Under the pieces are notes generated by a model. That model saw only the letters and a list, made by a program, of their open reading frames with translations, had not been told where the DNA came from and made no database searches. Shown here in pieces: positions 2,826 to 60,100 of a stretch of DNA of 64,000 nucleotides. Source of the stretch: Chiloscyllium plagiosum. Its lineage: Eukaryota. Made by a program: the position numbers and the translations under genes. The DNA is taken from contig NC_057750.1 of the NCBI RefSeq assembly GCF_004010195.1, forward strand, positions 3,773,450-3,837,449. Reading direction: 5' to 3'. Positions within the stretch are counted from its first letter, which is position 1. The number at the start of each line of letters is the position of its first letter.

Positions 2826-2860
2826 AGTCAACATTTTGGGTGTAACCCTTCTTCAGGACT
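2826..2860 (-). ncRNA. Decayed minimal hammerhead ribozyme motif (family B)
   Basis: AGUC-CUGAAGA-A-GGGU uac ACCC-(A)AAA-UGUU-GACU; stems I and II pair. Confidence 0.45.
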
Positions 2861-3116
2861 GGAGGGTGGGTGTAAGGGAAGCTGCAGATAAAGGGGGTGG
2901 GGTTACAGGGTGGTAAGGTGGGGATAGATGAGGACAGGTAGAGGGTATGACCTGGTTGGTCGATGGGAGGAATGAATCCAGTTGGTGGTTAGAAGGAAGG
3001 GTCGATGAGAGTAATAGAAGAGAGGGGGAGGGGCTGGGAGAGGAGTTGGATGGGAAGGAAGGTTATTTGAAATTGGAAAACTTAATGTTGAGTTCTCTGG
3101 GCTGTAGGCTACCTAG

Positions 3117-3432
3117 GGCAGTGTGGTGGCTCAGTGGTTAGCACTGATGTTAACCTGCCAAGGACCCAAGGTTTGATTCCAGCCTTGGGCGACTGTGTGT
3201 GGTGTTTGCACATTCCCCTTGGGTCTGTGTGGGTTTGCTCTGGTTTCCTCCCACAGTCCAAAGATGTGCAGGTTAGGTGAATTGGCCATGGAAAAATTGC
3301 CCATAGTGTCCAGGGATGTGTAGTAAGATTCATTAGTCAGGGGTAAATGTAGAGTAGGGAATGGGTTTGCGTGGGATACTCTTTGGAGGGTCAGTGTGGA
3401 CCGTTTCCATATTGTAGGGATTCTATTCTATT
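3117..3432 (+). mobile_element. HE1/V-SINE-type SINE inserted in a Penelope element
   Basis: A-box tggctcagtgg, B-box gtttgattcc, tail gattctattctatt. Confidence 0.85.
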
Positions 3433-4222
3433 CATGAGGAGTTGTTCCTCCAAATTGTCATCTGATTGATTGTGGCAATGGAGGATGCCAAGGATGGTCA
3501 TGTCAGGAAGGGAAATTAAAATGGGTGGTGACTGGGAGGTCAGGTCGGCCCCAGCTGAGATGATCTGCAATATGTTCCCTTAATTTACATTTGGTCTCCC
3601 CGATGTAGAGAAGACTACATTGGGAGCACCGGATACAGTAAAGTAGGTCAGAGGGGAGGCAGGTGAACCTCTGTCTTACCTGGAAGGACTGTTTGGGGCC
3701 CTGGATGGAGGTGAGGGGAGGTGTGCCGGCTGGTTTTGCATCTTTTCTGGTTGCAGGTGAAGGTACCTCAGGGTTCAGGGGTGTTGGTGGGGAGAGTGGC
3801 GCAAACCAAGGAATTTGCAAAGGGAACGGTCCTTGTGGAAAGCAAAGAGGAGTGGGGGAGGGGAAGATGTTCTTGGTGGCGGAGTCTAGTTGGAGCTGGT
3901 GGAAGTATTTAAGGATGTTGCGCTGGATGCAGAGAATGTGAGGTGGTAGGTGAGGACAAAGGGGGACCCTGCCTTTATTGCTTTGGGGGGGGGGGGCTTA
4001 CTCAACATTGAGTTCTCCAACTTCAAATAATCTCTCTTCCCATCACCCGACTCCCTTCCGAGCCCCGAGCCCCTTTTCCATTCCTCTCAATTACTCTTCC
4101 TTCTAGCTTCCAACTGGATTCATTCCTCCCATCAACCAACCAGGTCAGATCCTCTACCTGCATTCACCTTACCACCCTGACCCCCACCCCTATATCTGTA
4201 GCTTTCCTTACACCCACCTCCC

Positions 4223-4257
4223 AGTCCTGAAGAAGGGTTACACCCGAAATATTGACC
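4223..4257 (+). ncRNA. Minimal hammerhead ribozyme motif (family B), partly decayed
   Basis: aGUC-CUGAAGA-A-GGGU uac ACCC-GAAA-UAUU-GACc. Confidence 0.5.
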
Positions 4258-4601
4258 TCTCCACTTCCTGATGCTGCCTGGCGTGTTGTGTTCTTCCAGC
4301 CTCCTGTTTGTCTACCTTAGATTCCAGCATCTGCAGTTTCATTTATCTCTGAGCTTCTTCAAAAGCTAGGCCACTGCAATGCTGAGGGAATACTGCACTG
4401 TCTTTTGGATGCTATGTCAAAATTTTCACCACGCTACTTCAAAAGAAAAGTGGCTGGCCCCTCCAAATTGCCTGACTACTTCACCCAACATCACGGAAAA
4501 ATTGATTATTCAGGTCATTATTAACTTTGCTAATTACTGTGGATAAACTAGACCTTACTTTTTCTAGATCACACTATACTTCAATACGTGCTTCATTGGG
4601 T

Positions 4602-4641
4602 AAAAAGCGGTTTCCTGGGGCAAAAAGCGGTTTCCTGGGGC
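4602..4641. repeat. Perfect 20-bp tandem duplication
   Basis: aaaaagcggtttcctggggc x2. Confidence 0.85.
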
Positions 4642-5361: not shown

Positions 5362-8300
5362 GTAACTCTTTGTTTCTCTTTTGGCTCTTCCACAATCCAC
5401 GTTGCAAACTGTTGGGGAAAAGATAAAGGGAGTGTTACAGGATGGTGGGGAACTTTACAATGTAGCAACGACCAAGATTTAATGATGCGATTGGCCAGCG
5501 AAATAATGGCTACATTGCAACCTTGTACAATGAGCGAAAGTGAGGACTACAGATGCTGGAGATGAGTCAAGATGAGAGTAGAGGAATGAGGATTCCTGAT
5601 GAAGGGCTCCTGCCTGAATCGTCGATTTTCCTGCTCCTCGGATGCTGCCTGACCTGCTGTGCTTTTCCAGCACCACTCTAATCTCGATCCTTGTACAATG
5701 GATTAATTGGTCCTGTTCCATTTGGCGAGAACCTGATCCTATTCTCGACCATTACAGCAGCAAAATTACTAAATTCGGTTGCTGGAAATCAGAGGGAAAA
5801 AAAAAACCCCAGAAAATGCTAGAAACTTTCGAGTGGTTAGACAACATCTGTGAGAAATAGAACTTATTGATATTTCAGGTCAATGACCTTTCATCAGAAG
5901 TGGAAGAAGTTCAGACAGAACATAAATTTTAAGATGGAAGGATATATATTCTCAATTTCCACTTGCACAAATGTGTCTGTTTCCACGACTCACGTTGACA
6001 AAAAGGTTTTAAGATTTGTTTCTTTCTTCCCTGAAGGCATTGGTTTCTTACCATGGCAACGTTCAGCCTCCACCTTACCCCCACTCCAACATGGCTTGAC
6101 ATTGGTCGAGCTAGATTTGGTCACTTTGTAGAGTGGATGGGGGAGGCCATGAAGGTAGAACTGGAAATCCAGCAGAATTGACAGGAATGGTGCTGGGAAT
6201 TACGGAATGCTGCTTCATCAATGCCATTCCCTACTTCATAAGGTCAGAGATGGGAATTTTCACTGTTGATTACAGTGTTTAACTTCATTTGCAACTGCTC
6301 GGATGCTGAAGCAGTCCATATCTGCCTGAAACAAGAAATGGACAAAATTCAGGCTTGGGCTGATAGTAGCAAGTAATTTTTCTATCATGCAAATGCAGAC
6401 AAAAGTGTCTCCAACAACAGAGAATCCAATCACACATCTTCAACAGTCTAGGTCATTGTTGTAAGTAAATCTGCAATAATTAGAATTCACAGTCACCAGT
6501 GACCAGAAAATGCCTGGACAAACCACACATATACTATGACTACAAGAGCAGATCAGAGGTTGGATATTCTGCAGAAAATGATCCACCACCTGACTGTTGA
6601 AAGTTTGTTCACAATCTACAAGCTACCAGTCAGGAGTATGAGGGAGCAATCAACACTTACCTAATTAATGCAGCTACAACAATATTCAAAAAGCTCAACT
6701 TCATCTAGAACTTGGCAATCTTTTTCAAAACTCATCCAGCAGCCTAAATATCCAACTTTTTCTACCTACCTACTAGAACCTGAGAGTTTTGGTCTGCATC
6801 TTCACAATGGGTAGTGCAGTTACCAGCTGAGCATATGATGATTAAACTTGCAGTGTAATAGCTACTGTATCAGATTACTTCCAACTGTTATATTGTTTTA
6901 GAAACACATGGAAGGAGATTGCATTATAAATATCTGTAAAACTGCTGTGCACATTCAAACCGAAGAGTGGCAAGTTGTATATGATCCATCTTTCCTGTTA
7001 ATTGAGAAATATGTAACTTTGCATATCTCTGTTTCCGATTTTGTTTTTGGAACATTCCGAGATGTTACACTAAGTCTGGAGGAAAGACAAAGATAAAAAT
7101 GATAAAATAACTTAAAATGTGTCAGTGGTTATTCCATCTCATTATTCTGCGGTTTTGCCTGAGATTTGCGTTTTTCTTTTTCTAATTAAAAGGGTGGTAA
7201 CTGTTTAAAGAAGTGTTGGAAAAAACACTTGCACTGTCCTCCACATTGCTTGCAGATAAGGTGACAATGATAATTTTATCTTTTTTGCTTTCACGGCCTT
7301 TATTCTTACCTTCTGTACTAACATTCGGCAATCTACAATTTCAATGAGATTTTTAATTCTTTAAAGAGATGTGGAAATCACTGGCAGGACCAGCACTTAT
7401 TGCCCACTTCTGATTGCCCTTGAGCTGTTGTGCTTTCAGAAAGCAGTTAAGAGTCAATCGCATTTCTCTGGGTCTGGCCAAACCAGGTAAGGGCAGCAGA
7501 TTAAAACAGATGCTGGAGAAATTCAGCATCTGCGGAAAGAGAAAGACAGAGTTAACATTTCAACCATTATTTTATTTCAGATTTCCAGCATTTGCAGGAT
7601 TATTAGCAAGTCAGTGTGCATGATTGAAACAGCAGATATTTTAGAACAATCAACAGGACTTCCATGTCCATTAGATTTTTATAAATTCTAACATTTATAT
7701 TGAATTAAAATTTCACTGTCTGCATGGTGAGATTTGAAACCACATCCCCACAGCATTAGTCTAGGTGGTCTACGTAACTAGTCTCAGTGACAAGCCCACA
7801 ATACCTCAACTTGCCCATTATTGACTTTGCTGAGTTATATATACAAGGGCTGAAAGAAACACTATATATGGCAGGCTTTCACTGCAGTACAGTTTTGAGG
7901 AAATGCTGCAATCTCAGAGATGTTGTCTGCCCTCTCAAGTGGACGTAAAGGTACATGGCTATTGAGAAGGTTTCCATGATATTTGGTCAATATTTATCCT
8001 TTTTACTGAAGGATAAATATTGTCACATTATCTCAGTGTTATCAGTGAGAGCTTGCTGTGCAGAAATTTACAGCCCTGCTTCTCACATTACAACAGTAAT
8101 TGAACTTGAAAAGGTACCTCAGTGACTGTGAAGCTTTGGAACACACTGAGGCCATGAAAGGTGGCATACAAATACAGGTCTTTCTTTTCACATCATTGCT
8201 GTTTGTGGGATCTTGCTATGTGCAAATCAACACATCACTTGTATGAAATGAGGTGACCATATCATGCTCCATGCCATTGTAATTTATCGTGATATTAAGT

Positions 8301-11300: not shown

Positions 11301-14300
11301 AAGACCTTGGCTTAACATCTCATCCAAAAAATATTGCTGCATTCCCCCAGTACTGCCCTGGGAGTGACAGTCTCTGAAAATTGGTGTGATCAATTCTTGA
11401 TCCTTGAGTTGGTACAGCTCCAAATTCTCTCTGATCATAGCTTAGATTTAGGATGACTATTGCTATAATCCTGATTGATGTTCCTCAATTCAAATGGCCA
11501 GGATTTGCAAATTTGCAGTGATCTCCTTTGCTAAAACTCAACTGGCAATAATGATATGGCCAAGGTGGTAGCCAAACATTTATCTTCTAAATTTCACAGT
11601 GCATTAGCGCTCTGCCAGGTGGTGCTTTTCCTATTTCTCCAGGCTTACCAAATATTCCTTTTGCTTTGTAGATTGAAAAGCCCAGAGCTTTCAGGTGTGG
11701 GACATTTGGAGCCACCAGTCTACAGCAGAGGCACCTGGCAACAGGAGACTTTGAAGGCAATCTTCACATCTGGTAATAAGTTGGTTTGTTGAGTTGTTTA
11801 AAAAATGGAATTAATTGCTTAATAAAAGACTTCAAAATTGAAAGCCCTTCTTTCAATTCAAAAGCTGGCATAAAATCTAGTCTTACTAAATCCTAGAATG
11901 GTTGCAGAATGGAAGAAGGCCATTCTGTCCACTTTGTGCTGGTTTGTTGAAGGAGTAATTGAGCAAAGGACTATTCCAGATCCTAATCATTCGCTACACA
12001 GAAAATGTTTTTCTTTATTTCGCTGCTTATTTTGCCAATACCTTATATCTGTGCCTTCTGGGTCTTGATCCTTTCACCAATGAGAAGAGATTCACTCTGT
12101 CCATACCTGTCATTGTTTTGAATACCTCAAGTCTCCAATCATACTTCCCTTCCAGAGAGAACTGTCCCAATTGCTCCGTTCCATTTGTTTAATCTTTTCT
12201 ACGTAAAGCACTCATTCTGAGGACGATGGTTCCATGAACCAGATAGGATAAAGCCTATCTCTAGTACTGCACCAAGTGGCCATTTTATTTCTCTGAGTTT
12301 AGTGTTGGCTGATCAATTGTAAAGAACACAACAGCTTAATCTTGCCCTCTGACTACCTCACTTTGATAGGCCCACAAGAGAATATTCAGGAGCAGGAGCC
12401 ATTGCCTTTCCTAACTAAGCTTCCTGCCATCACAGTGACAGTCAATAAACTTTATACAACTAGGATAGTTATACCTGGATAGGACAGTTCAATGGATTAA
12501 AATATAAATACACAAGTTAGGACAGACAGATCAGGGGCAGAAGTAGGTCATTTGGACACTCAAATCTACCATTGTTCAGAGGATTTAAAAGATTCTTTCA
12601 TAGGATGTAATCATCATTGGATTTGTTGCCCATCCCTGACTGCCTTTGAGAAAGTGATGAGGTAAAAACAATGACTGCAGATGCTGGAAACCAGATTCTG
12701 GATCAGTGGTGCTGGAAGAGCACAGCAATTCAGGCAGCATCCGAGGACAGGCAAAATCGACGTTTCGGGCAAAAGCCCTCCTGATGAAGGGCTTTTGCCC
12801 GAAACGTCGATTTTGCCTGTCCTCGGATGCTGCCTGAATTGCTGTGCTCTTCCAGCACCACTGATCCAGAATTTGAGAAAGTGATGATGAGCTACCTTCT
12901 TGGCTGCAGTCTCTATGGTGTGGGTGCACCTATTGTACAGAGGTTTGGTACAACTGAGCTATGCCATTTCAGAGGACAGTTAAAAGCCAACCACAATACT
13001 CTGGGTCTGGTGTCATGTAGATCTGGCCAGGTAAGGACGGTAAAGTCCTTCCCTAAAGGGCATTAGTGAACAAGTTGAGTTTTTATGACAATCAGAAATA
13101 GCTTCATGATCATGATAAAAATCAATTTTCAATTCCAGTGTTGTAAAGAATCTGGATTTCACCAGCTGTCACATTGAAATTTGAAACAATGGAATGTCCC
13201 CAGAGCATTTGCCTTAATTAATTAACAGAGACACCTCTCTACCTTTTCCCTGACCTTCCTAAATGTCTTCTACCTTTCAGGTTCAATCCCATGTCTTCCT
13301 GCAGCCATGTCTCTGTAATGGCTACCAGAGTGGATTTATTTATTTATTTCTGTTTGTGCTCTTAGTTCATATGTTTTGCTTTGAATGCCTCACATATTCA
13401 AATGCAATGCCTTTACATTTACACCTTTATTCTTGATTCATATTATCTATCTCTTTCTGTCACAATCTGTTTATCATTTCTCATCATAATATCTTTCTCT
13501 TTGGCTTTCACTCTACTCTTTGATTTACCACAAGTGCCCTACATTTGATCACTTGGTTCACTATTCCCAGATGTGTAGTTAGCAAGAACACCAGCCCATG
13601 TACAGTTCAAATGGAGATCATTCCATCAGTACAGATCCCACTCCCCCTCCAGTAATTTAATGATCCAAAGATAGTGACCCTGTTCTGCTTCTTTAATGTG
13701 GCACCTGGCTCTTCTTACTGACAATACAGAACCTCCTGCTTTGACTTACCCATGATATTGGTACTTACATAGACCATGACAACAGAATCCTCCCCCTCCC
13801 ACTGTAGGTTCTTCTCCAGCCCTGAACAGCTATCCTGAACTATAGTACCCAACAGCAGCAAAGTTGTCTGGACTTGCACTCTTTGCTGGAGGACAATATC
13901 AATCTTCCTCACTGCACTGACCCCTAACACCACTAATATTCCTTTCTCCTTATCCGTTTTCCTTTACCACAGTGTGATGTTCAGTAGGCCCATCTATCCT
14001 ATGGCCCTCACCCTTAACCAAATAAGCTGAAATAATCTCAAACCTGTTGGACAATTGCAAATGCTGCCCTCTGAGTCCCCTTACCCACTTCACCCACAGT
14101 GACACCCTCCTGTCCTTGAATACTGACCAAATGAGACCAATCTTGAGAGGTATGACTGCCTCCTCACACATAAAATTTATCAAAATTCCCCTCTCCCTCA
14201 CGTGTCACTGTGTTTGTAGATGAATGTCCAGCTTATATGTCCAGTTTGAACTGCTTGATCTTCAAACATTTCCTGCAGATGTGTTTGCTTTGGACCAAAC

Positions 14301-17300
14301 TGGCATCCAGGACACATCGCCTGTCCTGCCTTCCTTAAGGTGTTCTATTGTTACTTACTTATTTTATTCAACCTTGTATTTACCAATTTTTAAAAATATA
14401 CTTCCTTAACATTCACCGGTTGCTATACTATGTCGATCCTTAGGAATAGAATAAATCTTAGTCACTTACCAGATAATCAGAGTAAAAATCAATTCCTGAA
14501 TACTGACATTGGTGAAGGTAAAAGCAAGGAGCACCTCTTTTCATTGCTCTCCTTAATTTCTTTTATAATTTAACTCCAGCATTCCGTTGTAAGTCACACT
14601 CAAGTGCTTAGTTCTCATTAAGTTGGATAGTTCAATATGCAGTATCTAGGAGTCATTATTCAAAATCAGAGTCCCACTGCTTATAGAAAATGTCTTTTGT
14701 GCCCCATGAGGAGTTCCCAAAACCTTTTAGCTTGACCTGGTTGGTCTCAGAAATAAAGATTAATCACCCAGAAACCCCCCAGGAAGCAGCTGCATCAGAC
14801 AGATGTACAACAAACAGAAGATGCAGGCCCCATCTGGGATGCAATGAAATTCCAGAAAATGATGCAAGGAATAGTGCAGTTTCTGAAGGAATATGTGTGG
14901 CCACCACTGATTCAACATGAGGGTGGGCCAGATCAAACTGGGAGGTCATGTGATGTGAAATCTTAGGTTAAATCCAGATAATAACAACAACTTTATTTAT
15001 GTAGCATCTTTGTCTTAATAAGGGGGTTTCAACTCAACAGTAATAGGGACAGCTATCATTCTCTCCTGCTACATGAAAATGTGAGTATGAAAGCACCTAA
15101 AAACTCACTTGTTGTCACTCCACAGGAACTTGGAAGCATCTGAAACTCCCCTCTACTCAGCCAAAGCACATCAAGAAATCATTAACTGTATTGATGGTGT
15201 GGGTGGGCTTGAAAATGGACATGGGGCCCCAGAGATTGTCACTGGCAGCAGGGATGGTGAGTACTTCTACAAATAGTATGCACTGGAACCAGACAGGAGA
15301 TAAAGACTTTTCTTTAATGTTGCTTGAAAGGATATTGAGAGCAGATTCACAAAGAGGAATTGAAAAGGAGAAATTTGCAAGTTTGGGAATCAAGAAGGGT
15401 GTGCGACCATTTGGATAGCTCTTTTAAAGAGCTGACACAAAGCACAATGGGCTGAATGGTCTCTTGTGAATCTCTAGCATTCTATGAAATCAAGGCTTGG
15501 CACTATTCTTTATCCTAAACCTGGGATCTTAAACTATCTAAATTGCAGATTCTGAAAATCTGAAATAAAAACAGAAAGTGTTGAAAGTATTCAACAGGTC
15601 AGGCAGCAAGGATCTGTAAAAAGAGAAGAACCAAGGCAATGTTTCAGATGATTAATTTCTTGTCAAACTAGGTAGCCCTTTCACTTCCTTCTTTCTACAA
15701 ACCACGTGCATTTAAAAGAAAAAAACTACAGATGCTGGGAATATGAAATAAAACCAGAAAACTCAAAGGTTAACTTTGTGTCTCTATCCAAAGACACTGC
15801 CAGGCCTGCTGAGTTTCTCCAACATTTTCTGTTTTTATTAAGAGCTTTAAAAACCCAGATTTAAGAAACAGGGCCAAAAACTCAGCAAATCTGCCCCTTT
15901 GGGTGAAACATATCAAAAAAGGTCATGTTATTAAACAATGTAAATGAGTGCCATTGCTAATCAAAAATTTTGATCAATTAGCAGATAATGTTCCCAACTA
16001 CTTACACAACTGCATTATTTGTGATGATCTGTATCAATTTGAAATGTTCAGCAGATAGTGTCAGAGGCTCCCATACTAACACAGATTTTCCACCAAAATA
16101 TAATCCACACCTTTTCTTGAGGCTCTCCTACATTTTGACCTCGTCTTCATAGTTCCATCTTCCATAATTTGCAGCTTATTTGAAAGGCCTCAAGTTCTCA
16201 CCCATCCAGAATTCCATAGTTCCATCGCTGGGTCAATATTGATGAAATCCTATCCTTACAGTACTTTGGGTGTTCTGACACACCAAGGATGCAGTGGTTT
16301 AAGAAGGCAGTCACTACTACCTTCTCAAGGGCAATTAGTAATGGGTAATAAATGCTGGCCCAGCCACATCCCTTCAGTGATTTCTTTTTAAAAACAAGAC
16401 TCCCAGACATGAGGGTGCAATGGTTTCTTATGCCCTTTCAATTTAGTACAACCTCATTAAGAGACCAACAGTCAAACATGCACCAGTTTTAAAGTGGCAC
16501 CAGCAAAAGCAGCCTTGTTTTAGACTTTTGCTTAAGGCTAACATCACTGACAATGTAACATGCTCTGTGTATCACACCTGTATGTCTCCCTGATCCAGAA
16601 TATTCAAGTTACCACAGTATATTGTTTCAGTCCGTGTTACACTTATTCCCAGAAAAATGTGACAGAAAGAGAGTAACTAGATAGCTCTATCAAAGAATCA
16701 ACATAGGCACAATGGGCCAATTAATCACTTAGAATCATATAGTCCTACGGCACAGCAACAGGCCCTTTGACCCAAACTGGTCCATGCCAACCAAAATGTC
16801 TGGCCACACTTAACCCCATTTCCCTGCCCATATCCTTCTAATCCTTTTCTATCCAAGTATTTGTCCAAATGTCTTTTAAATGTTGTTAATGTACCTGCCT
16901 CAACTACTTCTGCTGGCAACTCATTCCATGTGCGTACCACTCTCTCTGGTTTCCTTTTATTCTTTCCTCTCTAACCTTAAACTGATGCCCTCTCGACCTT
17001 GATTCCCCAACCTTGGGAAAAAAACTGAAAAAGGCATTCACCCTATCCATGTCTCTCATGATCTTATACACCTGTATAAGGTCCCCCTCAGTCTCCTAAG
17101 CTCTCAAGAAAAATGTCCTAGCTTATCCAACCTCTCCCTATAACTCAGACCATTGAGTCCAGGCAACATCCTTGTAAATCTCTTCTGCACTCTTTACAAT
17201 TTAATAACATCTTTCCTATAGCAAGGTGACAAAACTGAACACAATACTCCAAGTGTGGCCACACCAATGTCCTATACAATTGCAACATAACTTTCCAACC

Positions 17301-26162: not shown

Positions 26163-26829
26163 GAAGTTGAATTATTCCATTTCATTATTTTGCCAAGTAT
26201 TTGGAATAGCAAAGTGGATTTAAATTCCACTCAATGCTTAGTGAAAAAGGATATGCAATAGAATACCAAAATATTGCCAATTATGCCCAAATTATTTCCA
26301 CTCTTAAAATTCACTTGTGTGGCACATACATCTCTGAATGGCCAACATTTATTTCCTGTCCCTTGCTGTCCTTGAGATGGTGGTGTGGGCTGCCTTCTTG
26401 AACTGCTGCAGACCAGGTCTGTGGGTAGGTCCACAATGCCACTGGGAGGGAATTCTAGGGTTTTGACCCAGCGACAGTGAAGGAATAGCAATATATTTCC
26501 GAGGCAGGCTGGTGAGTAGCTTGGAGGGGAACTTGCCAGGGGTTTCCGATGTATCTGCTGCCCTTGTCCTTCTAGATGGAAGTAGTGTGGCTTTGCAAGA
26601 TGCCAAGGACATACTTCTCAAATGATAATAAACACAAAGTTATTAAATGGAGAAATGTGTAGCTCCTGGTAATTATAGGGCTATAGCAGCTGGATTGTAC
26701 ACCAACAGTCAAACTGCTGCTGCCTTTGTGGGGTTAGCTTCCAAATAGCGCGTGCGCACACACAACTTTTTACTGCAACAATTTGATAGGTTCCACCTTT
26801 ACCCTGTACAGAATAATGTTAGAGAGATT

Positions 26830-28030
26830 CTGACTGTAGGTTTGCTTGCTGAGGTGGAAGGTTCATTTCCAGACGTTTGAGCACCCTACCTAGTAACATC
26901 TTTAGTGGGCCTCTGGGCAAAGCACGACTGATAATTCCTGCTTTCTATTTAGGTTTTGGTTTTTTTGGGTTGGTGATGTCATTTCCTGTTCTTTTTCTCT
27001 CAGGGGTTGGTAGATGGAGTCTAACTTGATGTGTTTGTTGATAAGAGTTCCAGTTGGAATGTTATTAGATTACTTAGTGTGGAAACAGGCCCTTCGGCCA
27101 AACAAGTCCACACCGACCCGCCGAAGTGCAACCCATCCAGACCCATTCCCCTACATTTACCCCTTCACCTAACGCTACGGGCAATTTAGCATGGCCAATT
27201 CACCTAACCTGCACATTTTTGGACTGTGGGAGGAAACCGGAGCACCCAGAGGAAACCCACGCAGACACGGGGAGAATATGCAAACTCCACAGTCGCCCGA
27301 GGCGGGAATTGAACCCGGGTCTCTGGCGCTGTGAGGCAACAGTGCTAACCACTGTGCCACCCATTTGCTATGACTCTAGGAATTCTCGTGCATGTCTCTG
27401 TTTGCCTTGTCCGAGGATGGATGTGTTGTCTCAGTCAAGGTGGTGTCTTCCTCATCTGTATGTAAGGATACTAGTGAGTCATATTGTTTTGTGCCTAGTT
27501 GATGTTCACGTGTCCTGGTGGCTAGTTTTCTACCTGTTGGTCCAATGTAGTGTTTGTTACAGAATTTTGTAAATGATGCTAGTTTTGCTTGTTGTCTATA
27601 CATGGCCTTTCAAGTTCATTAGCTGCTGTTTTAATGTGTTGGTGGACTACTGTGATGCCAAGGGGTCTGAGTAGTATGGCAGTCATTTCAAATATGTCCT
27701 TGACATGGTAGAGTTAATTGGATACCCATTCTTTTGAATACACAGTTTAGGTGCTTTTTCGCTGTTCTGCATAGTTCCTCTGTGCTGGCTCTTTGAAATA
27801 ATGTTGTAATGCAGCTTCATTTATGGGTATTTGAAAGATTGCTTCTGTAGTTCAATATTTGGTCTATGTGTTGTTTTCCTGTAGATGCTGATTTGAAGTT
27901 GCCCCTTGGCTATTTGCTCTACTGTGACATCTAAGAAGGGCAGTTTGTTGTTGTTTTCTTCCTCTTTAGTGTATTTTATGCCAGTAAGGCCTATATCCAG
28001 AACCTCAACCCAAGCTACAAATCTTAATTC
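26830..28030 (-). mobile_element. Penelope-like element fragment (RT C-terminus plus GIY-YIG), same family as 18947..19348
   Basis: KEEENNNKLPFLDVTV...YRKTTH (27821..28051 -) and CNKHYIGPTGRKLATRTREHQ (27376..27603 -); SINE inserted at 27064-27362. Confidence 0.8.
27064..27362 (-). mobile_element. HE1/V-SINE-type SINE (young, CpG-rich) inside a Penelope element
   Basis: Family consensus match with CpGs retained. Confidence 0.85.
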
Positions 28031-46213: not shown

Positions 46214-47787
46214 TTTGTAATGATTTTATACAGCCTGAAAGAATATTGTAATAATGTTGCACTGTTAAAACCAGAATCTCAGACTTGCTGTAAAAGCTTA
46301 CCAGTTACAAGTAAGGCAGTATATGACCACTAGCTGAAAGAGACACTACAGTTCAATAGATGAAGTGCAAATAACTTGTAATCAACTCAAGGTCAGGTTG
46401 GCAACTTGCCCAATTGCAATTCCACAGTACTTAACAGAGAACATAGAGCAAACCTCAACTGCTCCATCTTTATTATGTTAAGTAGAAATTCATATAAACA
46501 GACCTGCACATTGAATAACTACAATTAAAATTTACTAATCTTCAGACGACAAGCTGTTAACCTAAAGGAATTGCCAGCACTAAAGTTAGAGAAAGCAAGG
46601 CAGCATATTCACACAAGGAGGATCTTGAGAAGTTGGAAACAATTAGCGACTGCTCTGGATGCCAGATTACACATAAGCAAAACAATGAAAGATTGGTCAG
46701 TTATTGAGCGTAAACACTAACGTATGTTCTAGGCACTGAACTGGTTCAGTGATTTGAATTATAAATCAAGGATCATTATTTCCTTGTTGCAGCTTTCAAA
46801 CCATTATCAAATTCAACATCTGACCCCATAAACTGCATACATTAGTTAAGCAAAGTTTAACTCCTATTGCAAACATCTAATGTGATTAAGAGGTAGCCTC
46901 ATAGCATATCAACCTTCAGACTCCACTTTTTAAAAAAAATACTTGCAGCTGGTAGGGATTTTAAAATGGTATTTGCATATTGACTTTGCAACCTTTAGCA
47001 CAAAGTGCACACTCTGTTGTACCTTGGCGTCCATCTTGCTTCAAGACGTTAAAAGCGACATTAATATACAACGCCAGCTTTTCCAGGCTTCCCAAGGTAA
47101 GGAACGTACAAGTTAAATTATAAACACGCCTTCTAAAGAACTTCGAGATAATGCTTCAATAGTTTGAGGCGGAAAATTCTGTAATTCTAAATCACTACCA
47201 ACATCTGCATTTCTCCTTGTATGCGATATTTAAAAAATTCTACTGCCCCATTAATCTTGTGATTATCTGACATTTGTATCATCTTGTTATCTCTGCTACC
47301 AGCAGAAACAATTTATCGCTATTTAACTCAATAGAGAAAGCTCGCTCGTTAACAAAAAAAAACGTCTCGGTATAATGCTGAAGAATATTATTTCCAGCTA
47401 GAAAAGGTTTAGTTTGTTTTTCACATAAAATCGCGCACCAACCGAACCGAGTTTACTAAAAATACAACGACGCCATCAGTCACCAGTAACCGCGAGGGTG
47501 TTTTTTCAAAAAACAACAAGGCAGCGCCACAATCAGAATCTAAACCAGATTTGAAAAATTCGACACCGTTAATGCCCCGATTAATCAAATGCCCTGAAGA
47601 TAAAGTATTTTACATCTGATCAAGTTCTCGGTCGGTGCGGATAGGGGAAAAAAAAACGCCATGTGGGGTGGGGGGTGGGGAGCTCGTGCCGAAAGAGAAG
47701 GTTCCAGAAAGGAAAACAGTTAAATGATGAAACAGTGCAGCCAGAGGCGAATCGCCCTGCCCGCCCCTCCCCCACCACGAGGCCTAC

Positions 47788-48208
47788 CTCCAGCCGCCGC
47801 CTCTCGGCACCAACTCGAGCAGCGGCAGCGACGCCCCGGAGCCGCGCCCCGACACGACGCGAACCCACCCAACCCCCCGAAAAAAAAAAGCCAGCCGCGA
47901 CTCCCTCCGCTCACTCGCTGCCTCGCCGGGTGGTTCTCGGGATGGCTCTGCCGCCCTTCAGACTCTCGGCACTCGGTGATTTTTCTCTCTCACTCTCCTC
48001 TACCTCCTCCTCCGCCGCCGTCGACGCCGCTTCTTCTCCTCCTTCAGTCACTTGACGCCAACGTCACTGCAGTGAAACGGGGCTTCCCGTGCTCGTCTCT
48101 CGCTCTCCTCTACCTCCTCCTCCGCCGCCGTCGACGCCGCCGCTTCTTCTCCTCCTTCAGTCACTTGACGCCAACGTCACTGCAGTGAAACGGGGCTTCC
48201 CGTGCTCG
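47788..48208 (-). other. SRSF5: Candidate non-coding exon 1 (5' UTR) of the SRSF5-like gene; upstream boundary (TSS) uncertain
   Basis: Donor GAG|gtaggc at 47787 inside the CpG island; the start-codon exon has its own acceptor, so an upstream exon is required. Confidence 0.6.
47986..48208. repeat. Tandem duplication, 110 + 113 bp
   Basis: 47986-48095 and 48096-48208 differ by one substitution and one CGC indel. Confidence 0.9.
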
Positions 48209-48366
48209 GCTGCAGGGGCGGCGTTGTGACGTCAAGGATATGTTTCCCCACCTCCGCTGTCAATCACAAGCTTCACCCCGCCCCCTCCCTCGTTACTGTC
48301 GATCAACACACTGGATGTGCCAGGCCCAATCATTCCCCTCACTGCCTCAACCTAAAAACATGGAAA

Positions 48367-49888: not shown

Positions 49889-50746
49889 TGTTGTGACAAT
49901 TCTATGGCTTTCACAGGCTTATTTTGTCCTGGTTTATATTTGTTAAGAAAGGATGACCGATTGTTCTGTTCATAGGCAAAAGTGAGGACTGCAGATGCTG
50001 GAAATCAGAGTTTAGATTAGAGTGGTGCTGGAAAAGCACAGCAGGTCAGGCAGCATCCGAGGAGCAGGAAAATCGACATTTCGGGCAAAAGCCCTTCAAC
50101 AGGACTGTGCCCATAAAGTAAACAGCTTGTGAGGCCTTGGGTTTTTCTTTAAGTTGGAACACTAGAAGCAGGAGAGTGAGGACTGCAGATGCTGGAGAGT
50201 CAGAGTCGAAAAGTGTGGCACTGGAAAAGCACAGCAGGTCAAGCAGCATCCGAGAAGCTGGATGGGATCAAATTCCCACAGGACCAGGATTTTTAGTTTT
50301 AGATTTTCAGTAGCAGTTGCTGCTGGGGTCTTGAAGCTGAGGTTGGAAGCTGTTTTTTTCTGTCTGTTACAGCTAAAAGCTGGGATTCTTTTCCCGCTGT
50401 TAAAATTGAATGTGCAACGATCTATTTTAATGAATTTGCCTTTACCAAGGGTGTGTTTATGGGATGTAACTATAATGGAACAGTTAATGTTTATAGTTAA
50501 GTAATCTATTGTTCTATTAGGTTTTCCAATAGAGTAAAGTTGTTATTCCAATTTCTTTTTTTGTATTTTCTTTATATTAAGTATTGTGTATGAATCAAGT
50601 GTAGATGTTTTGCTTCAAGTCTCGTAGTTTGACCAATTGGATTGCATCCAGAATGCAATGCCTGGCACTTACCTTTAAAATAAGAAAAAGTTAGATTTTA
50701 GGCTATCTTCTTAAAATTTTGAGGGGTTTTGGATTGGTCCATAACA
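49889..50746 (+). mobile_element. Probable solo LTR related to 9455..10069 (5' boundary uncertain)
   Basis: 3' end ...cttaaaattttgaggggttttggattggtccataaca resembles ...cttaagaatgttttaaatggtctggcttagtccataaca; no TSD verified. Confidence 0.45.
49973..50253 (-). mobile_element. Two short family-A Penelope-type terminal-repeat insertions (about 49973-50103 and 50170-50253)
   Basis: Both begin agtgaggactgcagatgctgg...; the first ends at the hammerhead-like motif. Confidence 0.65.
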
Positions 50747-53700
50747 GTATATTGTAAAATTGTTTATATTATACTTTTTAATGTTGGTGTGATCGCTCTG
50801 GACCATGTACCTGAGTTTCTGTAAACTGTAACCAGCGTTTTGCCAAGTATGACTCTCAATTTAATAATACTGCAACACGTCCTCCTACATCTAACTTGAA
50901 AATCAAGAGACCCCTGTTGTTGTGATTATCTGTGTGCCAAATTATTTAATCTAGGTCACTGATTTCCCTGAGGAAATTTTGGGTTTATCTTTTACAGAAG
51001 ATTGTTCAGCCTTTTGCTTTTTTGCGGCTGTGTCCTGCAATGACACATTTTCTGAAAGTTACCTTTTTGTTTTACAATGAAAACATCTGGATTTTAAAGC
51101 TGGACATTATTTATGCTTGTGAGGTTTCTTTACTGCACAACATTGGCAAAGACTTTGGTGTCCTCTCTGTTGCATTGATTTACCTGCTGTGTATTTTGTC
51201 ATTTTGTACCTTAAGCTATAAATAGATTTTGCACTAAGTTTATCTTCTGCCCTGAGGATTAGGTTGTTTCACTTTAAGTCATTTGCTTCATCACCATCTG
51301 AATGGCTTTCTCTTGAGTTAAGTCTTCTTTAGACAGTCATAAGTTTGACAAAGACTCATTAGCAGGTCTGGCAAGAACTGTGGAGAGAGAGAATCAGAAT
51401 TAATGTTTCAAGTCTTACATCATTTTTGTTAGAAGAAATAAGCACAGCTATTATCAGAATTCGATTTAATTTGCTAGCTAAAACTTAAGGAGATAACTTT
51501 AAGGCTTTCTTGAGTGAAAGAGAAAAGAATTCATTGCTTGTTAACCACAAGGATAAGAAAACATGACACCAAACACACAAAAACAGGTATAAGGAATAAA
51601 AAGGGGGAAGTGTCTCACATAAAGAGGAAGATAAAAGAATATATTCTTTGAAAGTCCTTAAGGTAGTAGATTTAATCTGAGACCATGGGTAAGAAAGTAG
51701 GAGCAGGCCATTCAGCTCTTTCATTTTAGATCAACTACCTCAAAGCCATAATGTTGTGCCAATCCCACATCCTGTAATTTCATTAGTAACTGGAAATCTA
51801 TTGAGCTCTATCTTCAAGTTATGTATGGGTCTCTGAAGTAGACAATTACAAAGATTCACCACCCTTAGAATGAAAAGATTCCTCCTCATCCCATTCCTAA
51901 ATAACCCACTCCTTATTCTGAGACTGACTCTTCTTACTTTAGACCTAACAGCTATGGGAAGCAGACTTTCCACCGTTATTCTGTCTATCTATATAAGACT
52001 TTTCTTTAAACTTGTAAATATATTTGAATTCTCAGTGAATAGGTACTTCTCCAATTTATTTTTCATTGGATGTTGTCTTCTGAAATGCTGAAAGAAAAGC
52101 AGGAAGCAAGGGAGACTTCTAGTTTTGCTATTATAAATTCATTTTATATTCTCTAACTGTTAAAAAATAGTTATAGAGTCATAGAATCATACAACATAGA
52201 AACAGATCCTTCAGACCAACCAGTCCATGCTGAATATTATCTCAAACTACACTGGCCCATATTCCTGCAACCCTTTCCTATTCACATAGTTATCCAAGTT
52301 AAATGTTATAACTGTGCCTGCATCCACCACTTCCTCAGATGTTCATTCCACGTAAACCACCCTCTGTATAAAAAAAAGTCCCAAATATCTTTTTAAAATT
52401 TATCTCCTCTCACCTTAAAAATATGCACACTAGTCTTGAAATCCTCTACCCTAGGGGAATCCTATTATCTCAAGATCACCCTATCTCTACCCATCATGAT
52501 TTTATGAACTCCTATATCCAGTTGCCTGAAATAAACTTCATTTGTGTATTTCTGTGTCTGCCTTAATTGTTGCTGCATAATCTGCAAGCAACTTTCATCT
52601 CAATTATGTGAAACCTGTCCAGAAATATGGCACAGATTTGAGTTTCAATGCCTTTTTATAATAATGTCAATTTTGGTTCAGACTGATTACTGTTTATTGA
52701 TGGTTTTGTGAGCTGGCTCAATCTGTAGTCAGGTGATTATAGTAGCAGTATTAGTTCATTGGTCTTCCTTGTTTAAAATCATTTTAGTCCATCACATTTC
52801 ACACATTTTAAAAATCAAGTGCTGGAATTTGAAAATTGATAGTTCATTGTTTACTATCACAACAGTTAAGTTAGACAAGTTGTTTCTGCTCTACTATACT
52901 TGTAGAAAAGATGGGTTGTTTAGCTCAGTTGGCTGGACAGCTGGTTTGCAATGACACCAACAGCATGGGTTAAATTCCCACTGTGGCAAATAAATGCAAA
53001 AGCTATAGAGTAGTTATAATTGAGGACTTTAAATATCTTAATATACATTGTCACCATACTTTGGAAATGGTGTGAAGAGATTAGAGAAGATATTGAAAAT
53101 ACTTAAAATGGTTCTGGTGATGGCACACTTCAGAAATGAGAATTGATTAGAGAAACAAGCCCCATTAGAGACAGAAGGTTGAGAGGAGCATCAAAATAAT
53201 GAGATATCCAGAGTAGATAAGGACAAATTGTTTCCGTTAGCAGAAGGCTTGAGTACCAGAAGATACAATTCAAGGTAAATGGCAACAGATCAAATTGACA
53301 TGAGAAAAAATATTTTCTATACAGTAAATGGTTTGTACTATCTGAGACCATGGTAAGGGCAGTTTTCAAAAGAGTATCAAATAATTATTTGAAAATAAAT
53401 ATCCAATCAGGGCTACAGTGAAAAAACAAGGACATTGGATCAATTGTGGTGAACCAATGTGGACCTAGTGAACTAAATTGCTTTCCTTGGGGCTATACGT
53501 AACTATTCTATGCTTCAAATTGTCAAACTATACAAATGTTTCTCATTAAAACAAAGTAAAAATACAGTAGATGCTGGAGCTCTGAAACAATAATAAAAAA
53601 AACTAGAGAAACCTAACTGTTCTGGCAGCATCTGTGGAGAGAGAATACAGTTAATGTTTTGAGTCTAGAATTATTAAGTCTGCCACAGGCCTTGGGTGTG

Positions 53701-54060: not shown

Positions 54061-54136
54061 TTGTGTTAAAATATCTCTCGACAAATACTCAACGTAAGAT
54101 AAAACATGGAGGTGACTGTGTGTAAAATGTAAAGCG

Positions 54137-54170
54137 ATGGATCGGGAAGACTTTTCGAAAAGGATGGAAG
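54137..54170 (+). CDS. CCDC97: CCDC97 coding exon 1 ([12 protein letters not shown])
   Basis: gcgATGg Kozak context; donor G|gtaaaa, phase 1, joins exon 2 in frame. Confidence 0.65.
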
Positions 54171-57100
54171 GTAAAACATTGAATAACAATCATCGGATGA
54201 GGAAGGTTCAGGACATTGAGGCCTTCACAGCCTGAACTTCCAAACCTGAGACTTAATCTAAAATCCAGTTTTAATTTATGAAAGAATTACCAGGTTTTTG
54301 CAAAATTATTTTCAGTCAGACTGTTGCATAAACCAATTCTTTTCTCTTCCCCCCCCCCCCCATCATCAGAATATTTAGTTTTTCACCTTGCACCCAGTAA
54401 AATGACAGTCAAATTATAATTTTTTTATTGCAATTATGAGTGTTTATATCTGCCATTAGAAATGCTAGGACTGTGATTTAGAAAGCATAGCTTAAAAATA
54501 AATCGAAGAAAATATGCAATGCTGGAAATCTAAATTTTTAAAAATGCACATGTAGCTGGATAGGATTGGAAAAGAAATGCATTATTCATTTCACAGACAG
54601 CTTTCCATCTGCATTCTGGCCTGCTCTGGTAAGGATTTTGTAAACATGAAGGGCTGAATGGCCTTCTGCTGTATTTTAAATCTCTTAAGGATATGAACAG
54701 TATAATTCATGTGAAATATTATTATTCATAGGCTCACAAACACAAGATCTGTTACAAGATGTTCCAAAAGTGAGTGATCCTTCTGCAGACATTGTCACTC
54801 AGGAGGCCAGTGCACAGGTAGAAGGGATGTCCATAATCTCTACTGAGGATCATGTCTCACCAAGTGAGGTTGAGGAACAGATCAAATCCTCTGTTCCTAC
54901 CTCGCCACAGGAGATTGATGACGCTGCCAGACTGATGAATAAGTTCCATGACGAGCAGCAGGAAGATGCTATGAATGCTTCACTGAACAGCATGTTTCAT
55001 ACGATTGCCAGTAGCAAAGCACAGATCAAAAGCCAGCAGAAGGACGAGCCTGATCTTATGTATGACCAGAAATTGGATATCATCAAGGATCTTTTCTGGT
55101 GTAAGCCAGTGGTGTTCCTCGAACGTTTTCACAAAATCATCAAAGAAGAGCACCTTGTCTGTTTCAACCATTTGGCTGAAAACTACGAAGTTACTTTTTA
55201 CAGTAATGAAATTAGGAAGTCTTCCATGAAGAAAACTGCCCGAACAAATGTTCGCAACAAGAGGTACGCGGCCCTGCAGCAGCTGATTAAAGGTGATGTC
55301 TAACATGGTATTTGGTATTTTGTTTTCACCCCACTTTTAGGAAGCTGCTGCCTTTTGCTAGTGATAGTTTTTTTTTCCCCCTTGTACTTTCCCAAAATGT
55401 TGTCACACCAGACAATGAAAAATGAAAGAGTAATTCAGCCATGAACCACATCACATCTGTTTGCAATATGCTGAAAGCAAGATTTAGTTGAAATATTGTT
55501 ACCTTTGAGCTTTTAATTTGTTTGGATCAGGGTTTTTCTTACTAGAATTAGAATCCCTACTGTGTGGAAACAGGCCTTTTGGCCCAACTAGTCCAGACCG
55601 ATTCTTTGAACAGTATCCCACCAATACCCATTCCCCTACCTTTACCCCTGACTCATGCACCTAACCTACACATCCCTGAACACTATGGAGAATTTACCAT
55701 GGCCAATTCACCAGACTTACACATCTTTGTGATTGTGGGAGGAAACCGGAGCACCCAGAGAAAACCCATGCAGACACGAGGAGAACGTGCAAACTCCACA
55801 CAGATAGTCTCCTGAGGTTGGAATTTAACCTGGGACCCTGGAGCTGTGAGGCAGCAGTGCTAACCACTGAGACATTATTGCTGCCCCCTTACTGTTCCCT
55901 TAAAGGAGTTAATTGTGTTGGTCTATCAAAATTAACTTATCCCATCCCAATTAATCAAATCTTCACTTTCCAGTAGGAAAGTCTTAATGTTGGTTTAAGC
56001 TGGATGATATATTCTTTGTCCCATTAGTAATGTGACCCAACTCCAGCTGTGGCTGTGTTCAATCAAAGTTATGAACTTGTATTTATAAAGTACCTTTAAT
56101 GCAATTAGCAGTCCAAAGGTGTTTCACAGTAGCATTATAAAGCAATGTATGACACTCAGCAATATTAGGAGATATTAAATCAAATGACCAAAAACCTTGA
56201 CAAAGAGGTGGATTTTAGGGAGTATCTTGAAGGAGTAAAGTGAGGTATTGGGCCAGAGAGTTTAGGGAGGAAATTGCAGAGCTTGAGGCCAGGAAGCTGA
56301 ACACAACATATTTTGGAAGGTAATGGGGCTGAAGGAAGTTACAGACTAGGATGGGCACAGCCATGGAGAGATTTGAGAACAAAGACAAACATTTTAAAAT
56401 TAAATCTTGTTGATGAGGTTCCAGTGTAGATCAATCAATGATGGGGAACCAGGAATTTGTGCAATTTAAGGCACAAGCTGCAAAGTTTGAATGAGCTCAA
56501 GTTAATAGAGGAGAGAATCTGGGAGGCTCATCAGGAGTCATCGAGTCTAGAAGTAACAGAAGCATGGATGAGGGCAAAGGCAGCAGATGAGCTGCGGTAG
56601 GGTGAAGTCAAATGATGTTGCAGCGGAGAAAAAAATGTGGTCTTGGTTACAGCACAAATATAAGGCCAGGAGCTCCCTGATGGTTTGTGTAAAGCAGCAA
56701 ACGTTCCATATGATTAAGTATGGGCACTGACCCCACTCTTGCCCTTTCATGGTGCATATTGCTGGCATATTTCCCACAACTGGATGACCTGGTTTTGTGC
56801 CAGTGACATAATCCATGGAATCATAAAATCTCAACAGTGTGGAAACAGACCCTTCGGCCCAACAAGTCCACCCTGACCCTCCGAAGAGTAACCCACCCAG
56901 ACCCATTCTCCTACCCGATTACTTTACATTTACCCCTGACTAATTCACCTAACATACACATTGGGCAATTTGGCATGCCCAAATGTACCTAACCTGCACA
57001 TCTTTGGATTGTGGGAGGAAACCAGAGAACCTGGAGGAAACCCACGCAGACTTAGAGAATGTGCAAACTCCACACAGACAGTCGCCCAGGGCTGGAATCC

Positions 57101-60100
57101 GAACCCAGGTCCCTGGCGCTGGGAGGCAGCAGTGCTAACCACCATGCCACCAGGTCTTACTTCAAAAATCCTTTCAAAGAAATGTGAAGCCAAAGTGAAA
57201 TGTAACAGATAAAATTATCAAAGGTATTCAAGATACACAAATCTTCAGCTTGACCCATACATTTGCAACAGTATGTATCATGTGAATTTAATTTTTTTTT
57301 GGTTTTATACTTTCAAGTAAAGAACAAGTTCTGATGAAAAGATCCTAGGCCTGAAATGTTAACTCTTTCTCTTTCCATAGATATTGTCAATCCTGCTGGT
57401 GTTTCCACTATTTTCTGTTTTATTTCAGATTTTCAACATCCCCAGTATTCTGTTTTTGTGTTAATCTGTAAATAGTGCCATTGTTCAGAAGCTTGTTTTG
57501 TGTTTTTGTCGAGCATTAACATAGAGCACTGCCTGCTCCCTCTAATCCGTCTCATCAATATTTCTCACTCGAGCTTTTTGAGTGAGCTTGCTAGTTTTGT
57601 ATCAAACAATTGTAAGTTTTATTGTTGTAGGTTTGTATCCAGTAAAAACAGAGATTAAATTCCTTCTTTGTATTGACACCCTTGTTGTTAACAGAAAAAG
57701 GAAGAAATTTATCTCGTTCTGTGGGCTGGAATCAAAACTAAATGTCGAATGTGAGCACATGACGTTGTAGCTTCTTGTTTTATGTTGGCTCCTGTTTCAT
57801 GGTGATTTATAAATAATCTAATTGATTTAATCTATCCGGATAGTTCTCTTCATGCACTGTTAGAAACAGATTGTAATCCTTTCGTGTCTGACATCTCAAT
57901 TTTGATGTACTTTGTCTTTCCAATCTTGTTCTTTTAAAAAAATATATAACTTATCAGAACAGAAGAAAAAAATTAATTAATATATTCCTCCTCTCTATAT
58001 TTGTTTTATTGAATTGGCAGTGGTCTCACCCAAGAAACAAATTCACCTTTCCCAGTACTTGGTTATAACAAAAGAAGAGAAAGTGCTGGAAAATCTCAGC
58101 AAGTCTTGCAGCATCTGTAAGGAGAGAAAAGAGCTGACGTTTCGCGTCTAACTGACCCTTTGTCAAAGCTTTGACAAAGGGTCAGTTAGACTCGAAACAT
58201 CAGCTCTTTTCTCACCTTACAGGTGCTGCAAGACTTGCTGAGATTTTCCAGCATTTTCTCTTCTTTGGTTTCAGATTCCAGCATCAGCAGTAATTTGCTT
58301 TTATCTTTGGTTATAACAAGCTGCTAAAGGAAGAAATGGACAAATTTGTTTTCTTCTCTTCATAAATAACCACAGCAATTTCTTCCCACTTGCATTTTTC
58401 CTACGGTTTTAATTGCAGAACATTTCCTGCACAGAAGGGACTTGGATGGTCTGTTATGTATGCTGACTCATATAGCAGTCTAACAGTCCTGTTCCCTTGA
58501 GCTAGATAAATTCTTAAGTAACAAGTGAATCAGAGGATATTGTGGATAGGCAAGAATGTGGAGTTAAGGTCACAATCTCATTGAATGGACAGGCCTAAGG
58601 AGCTGAAGGGCTTGTTCATGCTCCTAGGTCATTTGTATCTCACCAAAACCCTGATATCTTCCTCTGTTTCAGTAACAACATGCATTAGAGAAACTAGAAG
58701 CAGACGAAGGCCATTCAACCCTTCAAGCCTGCTTCATCATTCAATATGATAATGGCTGGTGCTCAGTATCAATGCCATATTCTCTCCCCATACGCCTTGA
58801 TGCTTTTAAAATCCAAACATTTATGTATCCATTTCTTGAATATATTCACTGACTTGGCCTCCACAGCCTTCTGAGGTAGAATGTCCCAATCTTCTTTTGA
58901 GTGTAGAAGGTTTTCTCCATCTCAGTCTAAAATGGCCTATCCCATATCCTGAGACTGTAGCCTGGAAAAACATCCTTCCTGTGTCTAATTAGTCCAGCCA
59001 TGTTAGAGGTTTGTACATTCAGTCAGATCCCCTCTCATCCTTCTAAACTCTGAACATTTATGCTAACCTTGGTATCAGCCTAGTCAACCTCTTTCGCATT
59101 TCATCTATGGCAAGCATGCCCTTTCATGGGTGGGGAGACTAAACCTGCATGCAGTGCTCCCGATGCAATCTCTTCATGGCTATGGCTAACTGCAGTAAGA
59201 CATCCTGACTTTTGAACTAATTTCTCTTGCAGTGAAGGCCAATAACCATTTGCCTTCCCAGTTGCTTGTTGAATCTGCCTGTCTACTTTCATTCACTGGT
59301 GTACAAGGACATCCAGATCCCCTTGTACATCCCAATATATCACGATTTAAATAATGCTGTGCCTTTCAATTTTTCACACTGAGGTTCAGATTAGATTCCC
59401 TACAGTATGGAAACAGGCCCTTCAACCCAACCAGTCCACACCGACCCTCCAAAGAGTAACCCACCCAGACCTATTTCACTCTGACTAATGCACCTAACAC
59501 TATTGCGCAATTTAGCATGGCCAATTCACCTGACCTGCTCATCTTTGGACTGTGGGAGGAAACCAGAGCACCCGGAGGAAACCCACGCAGACGTGGGGAG
59601 AATATCTGTGTGGAGTTTGCACAGTCACCTGAGGCTGGAATCGAACCTGGGACCCTGGTGCTGTGGGCAACAGTGCTAATCACTGAGCCACCATGCCGCC
59701 AAATATCGCCTGAGGCTGGAATCACACCCAGGTCCCTGGCACTGTGAGGCACCAGTGCTAACCACTGAGCCACTTAACTTCATATAGCAATTCCTTTAAT
59801 GTCATAGATTGCTTTATTGTTCTTTACAAGGGTGATTATCAAACAAGATTTGACACTCGGCAATGCAAGGAGATACTAGGTGACCAAAAGATTTGGTCAA
59901 AGACGTAGGTTTTAAAGAGCTTTAAGGGGGAGAGAGGCAGAGGGTTTAAAGTGCTAATTCTAGAGCTTTAGAGTCTATGCAGCAGAAGGTACAACTGAGG
60001 CCAGTGAAGGAGCAATTATAATTAGGAATGTACCAGAGGGCAGAATTGGAAGAATGGAGATATCTTGAAGGGTTGTGGACCTGGAAGAAGTCTCAGCCCT

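Follow-up and report, generated by a model that had tools for sequence, protein, structure and literature searches.

Minimal hammerhead motifs at the ends of abundant truncated Penelope-like elements in the shark Chiloscyllium plagiosum

Hammerhead motifs and their abundance

The pseudo-long terminal repeats (pseudo-LTRs) of metazoan Penelope-like elements contain minimal hammerhead ribozymes (min-HHRs), which have low activity in vitro (Cervera and De la Pena 2014, PMC4209133). Several covarying families were reported per genome, 6 in coelacanth and 8 in Xenopus, with ~4,000 motifs in the former and ~9,000 in the latter; no cartilaginous fish appears in the available part of Fig. S3 of that report or in two of its supplementary files searched with shark terms. 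For PAc, a Poseidon element of Anolis carolinensis, reverse transcription has been reported to start inside the RNA at two sites in the tail, with uncut RNA as the main template and a hammerhead that needs the protein of the element in order to cut (Frangieh et al. 2024, PMC11167929); PMC6765202 and PMC6155905 were also consulted. Here we analyze a 64,000-nucleotide stretch of the C. plagiosum genome (assembly GCF_004010195.1, contig NC_057750.1, positions 3,773,450–3,837,449, forward strand; hereafter the window), for which an original prediction had proposed at least six families (A to F) of Penelope hammerheads.

We conclude, with a probability of about 0.8, that the copies are 5'-truncated, often head-to-head ends of Penelope-like retrotransposons, that the motif is likely functional only in active master elements, and that the copies decay neutrally. 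The feature is real and of a kind already described; it is an unusually abundant instance, and neither a new ribozyme class nor a new element type. As with the min-HHRs of PMC4209133, several families share one genome, and the motifs have the hammerhead core boxes and, in part of the families, an extra base between positions 9 and 10.1, a CG palindrome in place of stem III, and a stem I of 3–5 bp; they occur mostly as solo truncated copies with opposite-strand pairs close by.

The hammerhead motifs predicted in the window were all present, at or within ~30 bases of the positions given for them. Group profiles, each built from 13–30 genome copies, were searched against a genome sample of 1,208,786 bases (five regions, one including the window) and gave 343 matches, versus 0 in the reversed sample. 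The window has 25 profile matches, 15 of which reach the first core box, in agreement with the predicted density of more than 10 motifs in 64 kb. Seven neighboring pairs of these matches are head-to-head, each a single insertion, so that the 25 matches amount to ~18 insertions. A core-box pattern likewise had 102 matches in the sample and 3, 1, and 3 in three shuffles. Extrapolation from 343 matches per 1.21 Mb gives a genome total of about one million such stubs, which bears on how repeats are annotated and on where inverted repeats come from.

Tight patterns specific to single families were matched genome-wide by 15,996 sites for one variant of A, 902 for B, 3,814 for subfamily C1, 69 for D, 3,792 for E, and 85 for F, counts that are not comparable as copy numbers because the patterns differ in tightness; the reversed patterns gave one match for E and none for the others. 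A looser pattern that leaves out most of A, B, and E had 23,065 genome matches, in which subfamilies of C3 were dominant. The 16,000 and 23,000 matches to these two patterns, both still tight, lie far above the ~4,000 and ~9,000 motifs of PMC4209133, obtained with another descriptor. With a relaxed minimal descriptor, a stem I of at least 2 bp was found in 3 of 25 window matches and 43 of 343 sample matches, and one of at least 3 bp in 1 of 25 and 11 of 343, respectively. A strict descriptor had one match in the window at zero mismatches and three at one mismatch. An Rfam covariance-model scan of the window (E up to 1) returned no hammerhead family among its eight matches, which were only sub-threshold microRNA hairpins on palindromes.

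Lineages, stems and core variants

The six groups collapse to three lineages: A/B/D/E, C, and F. They had been taken for six distinct families, but A, B, D, and E match one another through a common 3' tail. To the same lineage belongs group G, an older, abundant sister of E and D with ~55 matches in the sample, a C3-G8 core, and stem I AGUU/AACU. Family C comprises at least four subfamilies. Family F is separate and old, with at least two subfamilies and nearly all of its CpG sites, as reconstructed, decayed in both directions.

The family majorities bear the minimal type I hammerhead known from Penelope-like elements, and their stems show compensatory changes. When the first core box was left free in the selection of copies, the majorities had C3-G8 in B, C1, C2, C3, F, and three well-sampled A variants; when the second was left free, GAAA was the majority in the B and C2 sets picked by their endonuclease. 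The core boxes and the NUH triplet are unaltered in the majorities of all well-sampled subfamilies; the core boxes of D rest on column majorities of only 37–60%. A CUGANGA core had been predicted throughout, and it stands for A, B, C, and F, with this proviso for D, and fails for E.

Majority stems I are AGUC/GACU in B and AGCU/AGCU in E, both as predicted, and weakly AGUU/AACU in D. The predicted CCA/UGG of family C occurs in C1 and part of C2, while other C2 copies have UCA/UGA and C3 has GCA/UGC. Family F has stem I UUGUC/GACAA (its 5' strand set by the search pattern), a 2-bp stem II, and the palindrome AAGCUU, in line with the very short stem II and AAG(C/U)UU foreseen for it. The GGGC/GCCC given for A is its stem II only. 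Stem I of A is AUUC/GAUU, with a U·U mismatch, in three of four well-sampled loop variants, and a perfect AUUC/GAAU in the fourth (9 copies). Hence a stem I of at least 3 bp is present in B, C, E, F, and one A variant, and weakly in D, but the three dominant A variants fall short of it (2 bp, U·U, 1 bp). An extra base between A9 and 10.1, along with a G10.1-C11.1 pair, is found in A, B, E, C2, and C3; the 10.1-11.1 pair is A-U in D and G·U in C1, and F lacks the extra base. These two pairs, together with the U·U in stem I of A, distinguish the shark motifs from the min-HHRs as described in PMC4209133. The palindrome at 15.2-16.2 is CG in the A, B, C, and E majorities and AGCU in F, followed by NUH with H being C or U; it reads mostly CA in the old D and G copies, which we interpret as CpG decay. 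In the youngest Poseidon-type subfamilies (C3; L033–L057), stem II contains a purine-purine mismatch, and the terminal triplet is GUU or GUC.

Family E departs from the other groups in its first core box, which is UUGACAA in 22 of 30 copies selected by stem II. A pattern allowing two bases at each of positions 3 and 8 had 1,430 matches, and the first 100 of them include 98 with U3-A8 and none with C3-G8. CpG decay, to which most damage to the motifs had been attributed, affects the copies in general (G12 of family A decays at 21%, like other CpG sites), but it is ruled out for the core of E, as both changes occur together in 98 of 100 among the matches listed. Since older relatives of E carry C3-G8, the swap is likely derived, and it likely arose independently of other U3-A8 hammerheads because those relatives keep C3-G8 in the same genome. 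U3-A8 cores occur in Schistosoma Cercyon elements (PMC4209133), and natural U3-A8 hammerheads that are active in vitro, as well as natural 2-bp stems II, have been reported (PMC3088659). Family E shares this compensatory swap with them and differs from Cercyon in being a vertebrate, Neptune-type family of ~3,800 matching copies, with C3-G8 relatives in the same genome. In the literature searched, which lay largely outside subscription papers, we came across no account of Penelope hammerhead families in sharks, nor of any U3-A8 family in a vertebrate. The fixed U3-A8 core of E beside its C3-G8 relatives is the detail most worth keeping.

Covariation was evident in nine Neptune-type representatives of the A/B/D/E/G lineage, in which six of nine pairs alter on both sides, a level reached by 1 of 500 shuffles, and 93.8% of cells pair, versus 21–46% in slid controls. 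Within C2, the 19 scorable copies have C-G (8 copies), U-A (9), or a mismatch (2) at pair 2.3-1.3 (p 0.001); the 32 copies were chosen by protein or profile, 13 were unscorable, and the change represents one event. The covariation sets are a handful of events and not independent samples. The Penelope-type minimal hammerhead proposed in the original prediction is supported, along with stems that covary between subfamilies and a position 3' of GIY-YIG remnants.

Parent elements and copies

Of 30 loci selected by the B-linked endonuclease protein alone, 28 are followed by the B tail, mostly 540–610 nt from the start of the endonuclease match, and of 20 selected by the C2-linked endonuclease alone, 19 are followed by the C2 tail, mostly at 360–430 nt; both sets include the window copy. 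For family A, a same-strand Penelope protein match lies within 900 nt upstream of 15 of the 204 sample matches, versus 3 downstream, and many of the upstream matches stop 210–235 nt before the hammerhead match. A locus of family E (L279) has a 3' untranslated region contiguous with the endonuclease C-terminus. Relatives of the C-linked reverse transcriptase (RT) bear RVT_1 and a few of them GIY-YIG, and the sole two longer relatives of the B-linked open reading frame (ORF) are from a bamboo shark and a stingray, consistent with a host among the cartilaginous fishes. A cysteine linker precedes the endonuclease in B-linked ORFs (L355, L339) and was not seen in C-linked ORFs. Such a CX2-5CxxC linker is described as a trait of Neptune and Nematis that is missing in Poseidon (PMC8557442). 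Judged solely by these linker motifs, which do not separate Neptune from Nematis, A, B, and E appear to be linked to a Neptune-type endonuclease and C appears to be Poseidon-type.

Family C resembles PAc (PMC11167929) in several respects: stem II begins with an ATG whose reading frame continues across the motif, the 3' ends fall at two sites ~30 nt apart, and the cut site is retained. C differs in being known from its sequence, with its clade assigned by linker motifs and not by a tree. In the C2 majority (L362–L379), the ATG is at A9 and its frame spans stem II and the tail, a layout shared with the lizard Poseidon, and a TATA-like box is present ~50 nt upstream. Among 30 C1 copies, 24 also have a TATA-like box, at 50 nt upstream; three E copies have one at 36–37 nt upstream, and none was found upstream of the motif in A or B copies. 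Family F (window 21950–22150, L121–L150) has CCAAT-like and TATA-like boxes upstream of its motif, and the DNA upstream of one F copy (L146) is a common short interspersed element (SINE).

Most copies are only ~90–135 nt long, with the motif at the head. Their 3' ends in A, E, and C1 form two clusters ~30–38 nt apart, matching the published optional tail. Starts of A copies were placed for 185 of 204 matches, the other 19 having been dropped because the tail was short, gaps were present, or the alignment could not be anchored; 106 of the 185 begin in the interval from -12 to +11 of C3 and 3 at the cut site. In sets selected with the motif present, the start is no more than 7 bases from position 3 in 23 of 29 copies of E and 13 of 29 of B. 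Because the cut site is kept and the starts fall mostly at the front edge of the hammerhead, the copies likely derive from uncleaved RNA. Copies of B, D, E, and G have an AG, preceded by a run of pyrimidines, as the first two bases of stem I on its 5' side (e.g., window 4215–4226), an arrangement resembling a 3' splice site, and the intron of Drosophila virilis Penelope is reported to end at helix I (PMC4209133). A splice acceptor was set aside as the cause of the front-edge pile-up, as A shows the pile-up with no AG there.

Of the 343 sample matches, 154 lie in head-to-head pairs less than 1 kb apart (77 cases), versus 14 direct pairs; family F shows inverted pairing in 6 of 30 loci, and no tandem array of these units occurs in the window. 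We compared decay at non-CpG sites in 116 copies of A (of 174 copies, 58 were left out because stem I is missing on the 5' side, as were columns that are polymorphic or fall on CpG sites) and found the core off-majority in 60 of 1154 cells (5.2%) and the tail in 228 of 4248 (5.4%; p 0.88). Equal decay of core and tail in A gives no sign of selection on inserted copies. The compensatory changes would thus have been fixed in active masters, as judged from A, the family in which decay was compared. This neutral decay, together with the 3-bp stem I in just 11 of 343 sample matches, leaves the predicted diversified set of working self-cleaving RNAs unsupported.

In the window, a family B hammerhead and tail on the minus strand (2793–2863; C3 at 2856, G12 lost through CpG decay) form the 3' end of a Neptune-type element. 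A minus-strand GIY-YIG endonuclease remnant lies upstream (3506–3712; PF01541, E 0.012, under the curated cut-off), with a SINE between the two (~3127–3401). The inverted partner of this copy, on the plus strand (4220–4313; C3 at 4227), is the sole window match with a 3-bp stem I by the descriptor. Family C1 is represented by a plus-strand motif (19262–19355; C3 at 19274, G·U at 10.1-11.1) with a short Poseidon-type ORF remnant just upstream. The C2 copy (26823–26917, minus strand) has both core boxes mutated; upstream of it on the same strand are a Poseidon-type endonuclease remnant (27379–27558), with no Pfam match by itself, and, farther on, the remnant of an RT end (to ~27990), while a SINE (~27076–27359) separates the endonuclease from the hammerhead. 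B and C had been placed directly 3' of GIY-YIG and RT remnants: the 3' position holds, but a SINE intervenes in both cases, the plus-strand B motif is an inverted partner, and the C2 copy offered as an example retains neither core box.

The A copies include one on the plus strand with a mutated second core box (GAAU; 5590–5677), which had been listed as an example of the family; a head-to-head palindrome with arms 99% complementary (12692–12875; plus-strand motif, C3 at 12781); a head-to-head pair (38674–38836; plus-strand motif, C3 at 38752, stem III CpG-decayed); and a minus-strand copy absent from the original prediction (50021–50107; C3 at 50102, A6 mutated). Family D has an old, decayed copy on the minus strand (5812–5904; C3 at 5897) and a D-like copy on the plus strand with a mismatched stem II (57325–57413; C3 at 57331). 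The stems proposed for D are a composite of the two, stem I being found in the second and stem II in the first. The E copy is a perfect palindrome (58067–58270) centered on a stem I strand, with the U3-A8 core in both arms, and F is an inverted pair, both members decayed (21884–22216; C3 at 21949 on the minus strand, partner at 22148–22216 on the plus strand). Group G copies are at 15576–15829, 51358–51414, and 53599–53667.

Other features of the window include an abundant SINE-like repeat of ~300 nt, presumably akin to the shark HE1 SINE, with 12 matches (e.g., 3127–3401, 19412–19681, 27076–27359, and 55544–55874), two of which are inserted in Penelope remnants between endonuclease and hammerhead. 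A broken reverse transcriptase frame with LINE-like motifs at 17800–18450 (minus strand), which we take to be CR1/L2-like, is unrelated to the adjoining C1 copy. The stretch at 47600–48300 is CpG-rich and promoter-like and may be a gene start; it contains a 113-bp tandem duplication (47986–48208, 96% matches) that may be real or an assembly effect.

Alternative readings and implications

Several observations weigh against the interpretation given at the outset. The commonest family, A, has a broken stem I, the young C3 subfamilies are mismatched within stem II, and the front-edge pile-up is nearly missing in C1 (4 of 29 starts within 14 nt). The Poseidon set by itself covaries weakly: its seven C representatives show double-sided change at 2 of 10 pairs, a level that 253 of 500 shuffles reached, and the stem II region of C may be coding as well. 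All representatives were picked by patterns that fix the core and stem II, and they are related by descent. No parent ORF was found for D (0/21) or F (0/8) in the 1.21-Mb sample, and the RT and endonuclease fragments taken singly are under Pfam cut-offs. Lastly, the double-hammerhead fold lies 5–14 kcal/mol above the dimer minimum in 5 of 5 natural copies, under an energy model with no tertiary term. Four window pairs were folded, and each gives a long hairpin in which the motif is buried. The high-energy double fold and the burying hairpins both fit slow, assisted cleavage and inactive copies.

The alternative that fares best is that the fold is kept in masters for a noncatalytic role at the RNA 5' end, binding protein or defining the start, with no cleavage in vivo. 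The apparent origin of copies from uncleaved RNA and the success of family A with a broken stem I agree with it, as do reports that catalytic mutants do not alter insertion in vitro, that no RNA reads end at the cut site (both PMC11167929), and that clades lacking canonical hammerheads spread well (PMC8557442). Selection on a catalytic fold, by contrast, predicts the double change from C3-G8 to U3-A8 in E and the constancy of the core boxes and NUH in well-sampled majorities, and the lizard motif is reported to cleave once its protein is added (PMC11167929). On balance we regard a purely noncatalytic role as possible, if on the unlikely side.

A second alternative, that the short copies are nonautonomous retrozymes spreading through tandem arrays and circular RNA, is improbable. 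The copies do resemble non-LTR animal retrozymes, which have been reported from one chondrichthyan genome (10.64898/2026.07.22.740005), in being short units, mostly ~90–135 nt, headed by a type I hammerhead from Penelope pseudo-LTRs. Those retrozymes are tandem units, however, whereas the shark copies are solo or inverted (77 head-to-head neighbors within 1 kb versus 14 direct, and no tandem array in the window), have ends off the cut site (3 of 185 there), and are traced to endonuclease-coding parents, with longer copies continuing into the endonuclease ORF.

The RNA data were fragmented polyA single-cell reads, which are unsuited to judging cleavage. In run X19, 788 reads contain family A sequence, in both directions; 94% of these continue into unrelated sequence, which fits read-through, and no position shows a pile-up of molecule starts or ends. 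In one cluster (44 reads, single flank) the match ends exactly at the cut site, which may reflect one truncated copy and was given no weight. The least probable reading is that the host retains the dispersed copies as a working population of self-cleaving RNAs acting on its pre-mRNAs, for although intact cores are very many (15,996 for one A variant, 23,065 for the looser pattern) and A sequence is found in these reads, the core decays like the tail, a 3-bp stem I is found in only 11 of 343 sample matches, and 154 of the 343 are in head-to-head pairs within 1 kb, with only 14 same-orientation pairs and with the motif buried in the four folded window pairs.

Returning to masters with a functional motif and neutrally decaying stubs, an active element would start its transcript in the pseudo-LTR just upstream of the hammerhead, and its RT would begin copying at one of two tail sites ~75–135 bases downstream. 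In Neptune-type families, RT would mostly halt at the hammerhead front edge and leave short inserts made from uncleaved RNA. In the simplest form of this, uncut RNA with its 5' end at the hammerhead front would be copied to run-off; the same pattern would be expected if RT stalled at a protein-bound fold. By analogy with published relatives, cleavage after NUH would need either a second motif, joined by palindrome pairing, or the protein that the element encodes, and the hammerhead of a master would cut its RNA slowly and with such help.

A further proposal, which we find rather doubtful, is that the genome is a natural mutagenesis series of one retroelement ribozyme, with the fixed U3-A8 of E, broken-stem A beside its perfect-stem sister, and front-edge inserts. 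The hammerhead would then act at the RNA 5' end as a protein-gated switch in competition with reverse transcription, cut RNA being lost and uncut RNA copied, so that weaker ribozymes would spread more. Natural variants that match except for a C3-G8 or U3-A8 core, or for a perfect or broken stem I, differ greatly in copy number, and they could show whether the strength of cleavage is related to transposition success.

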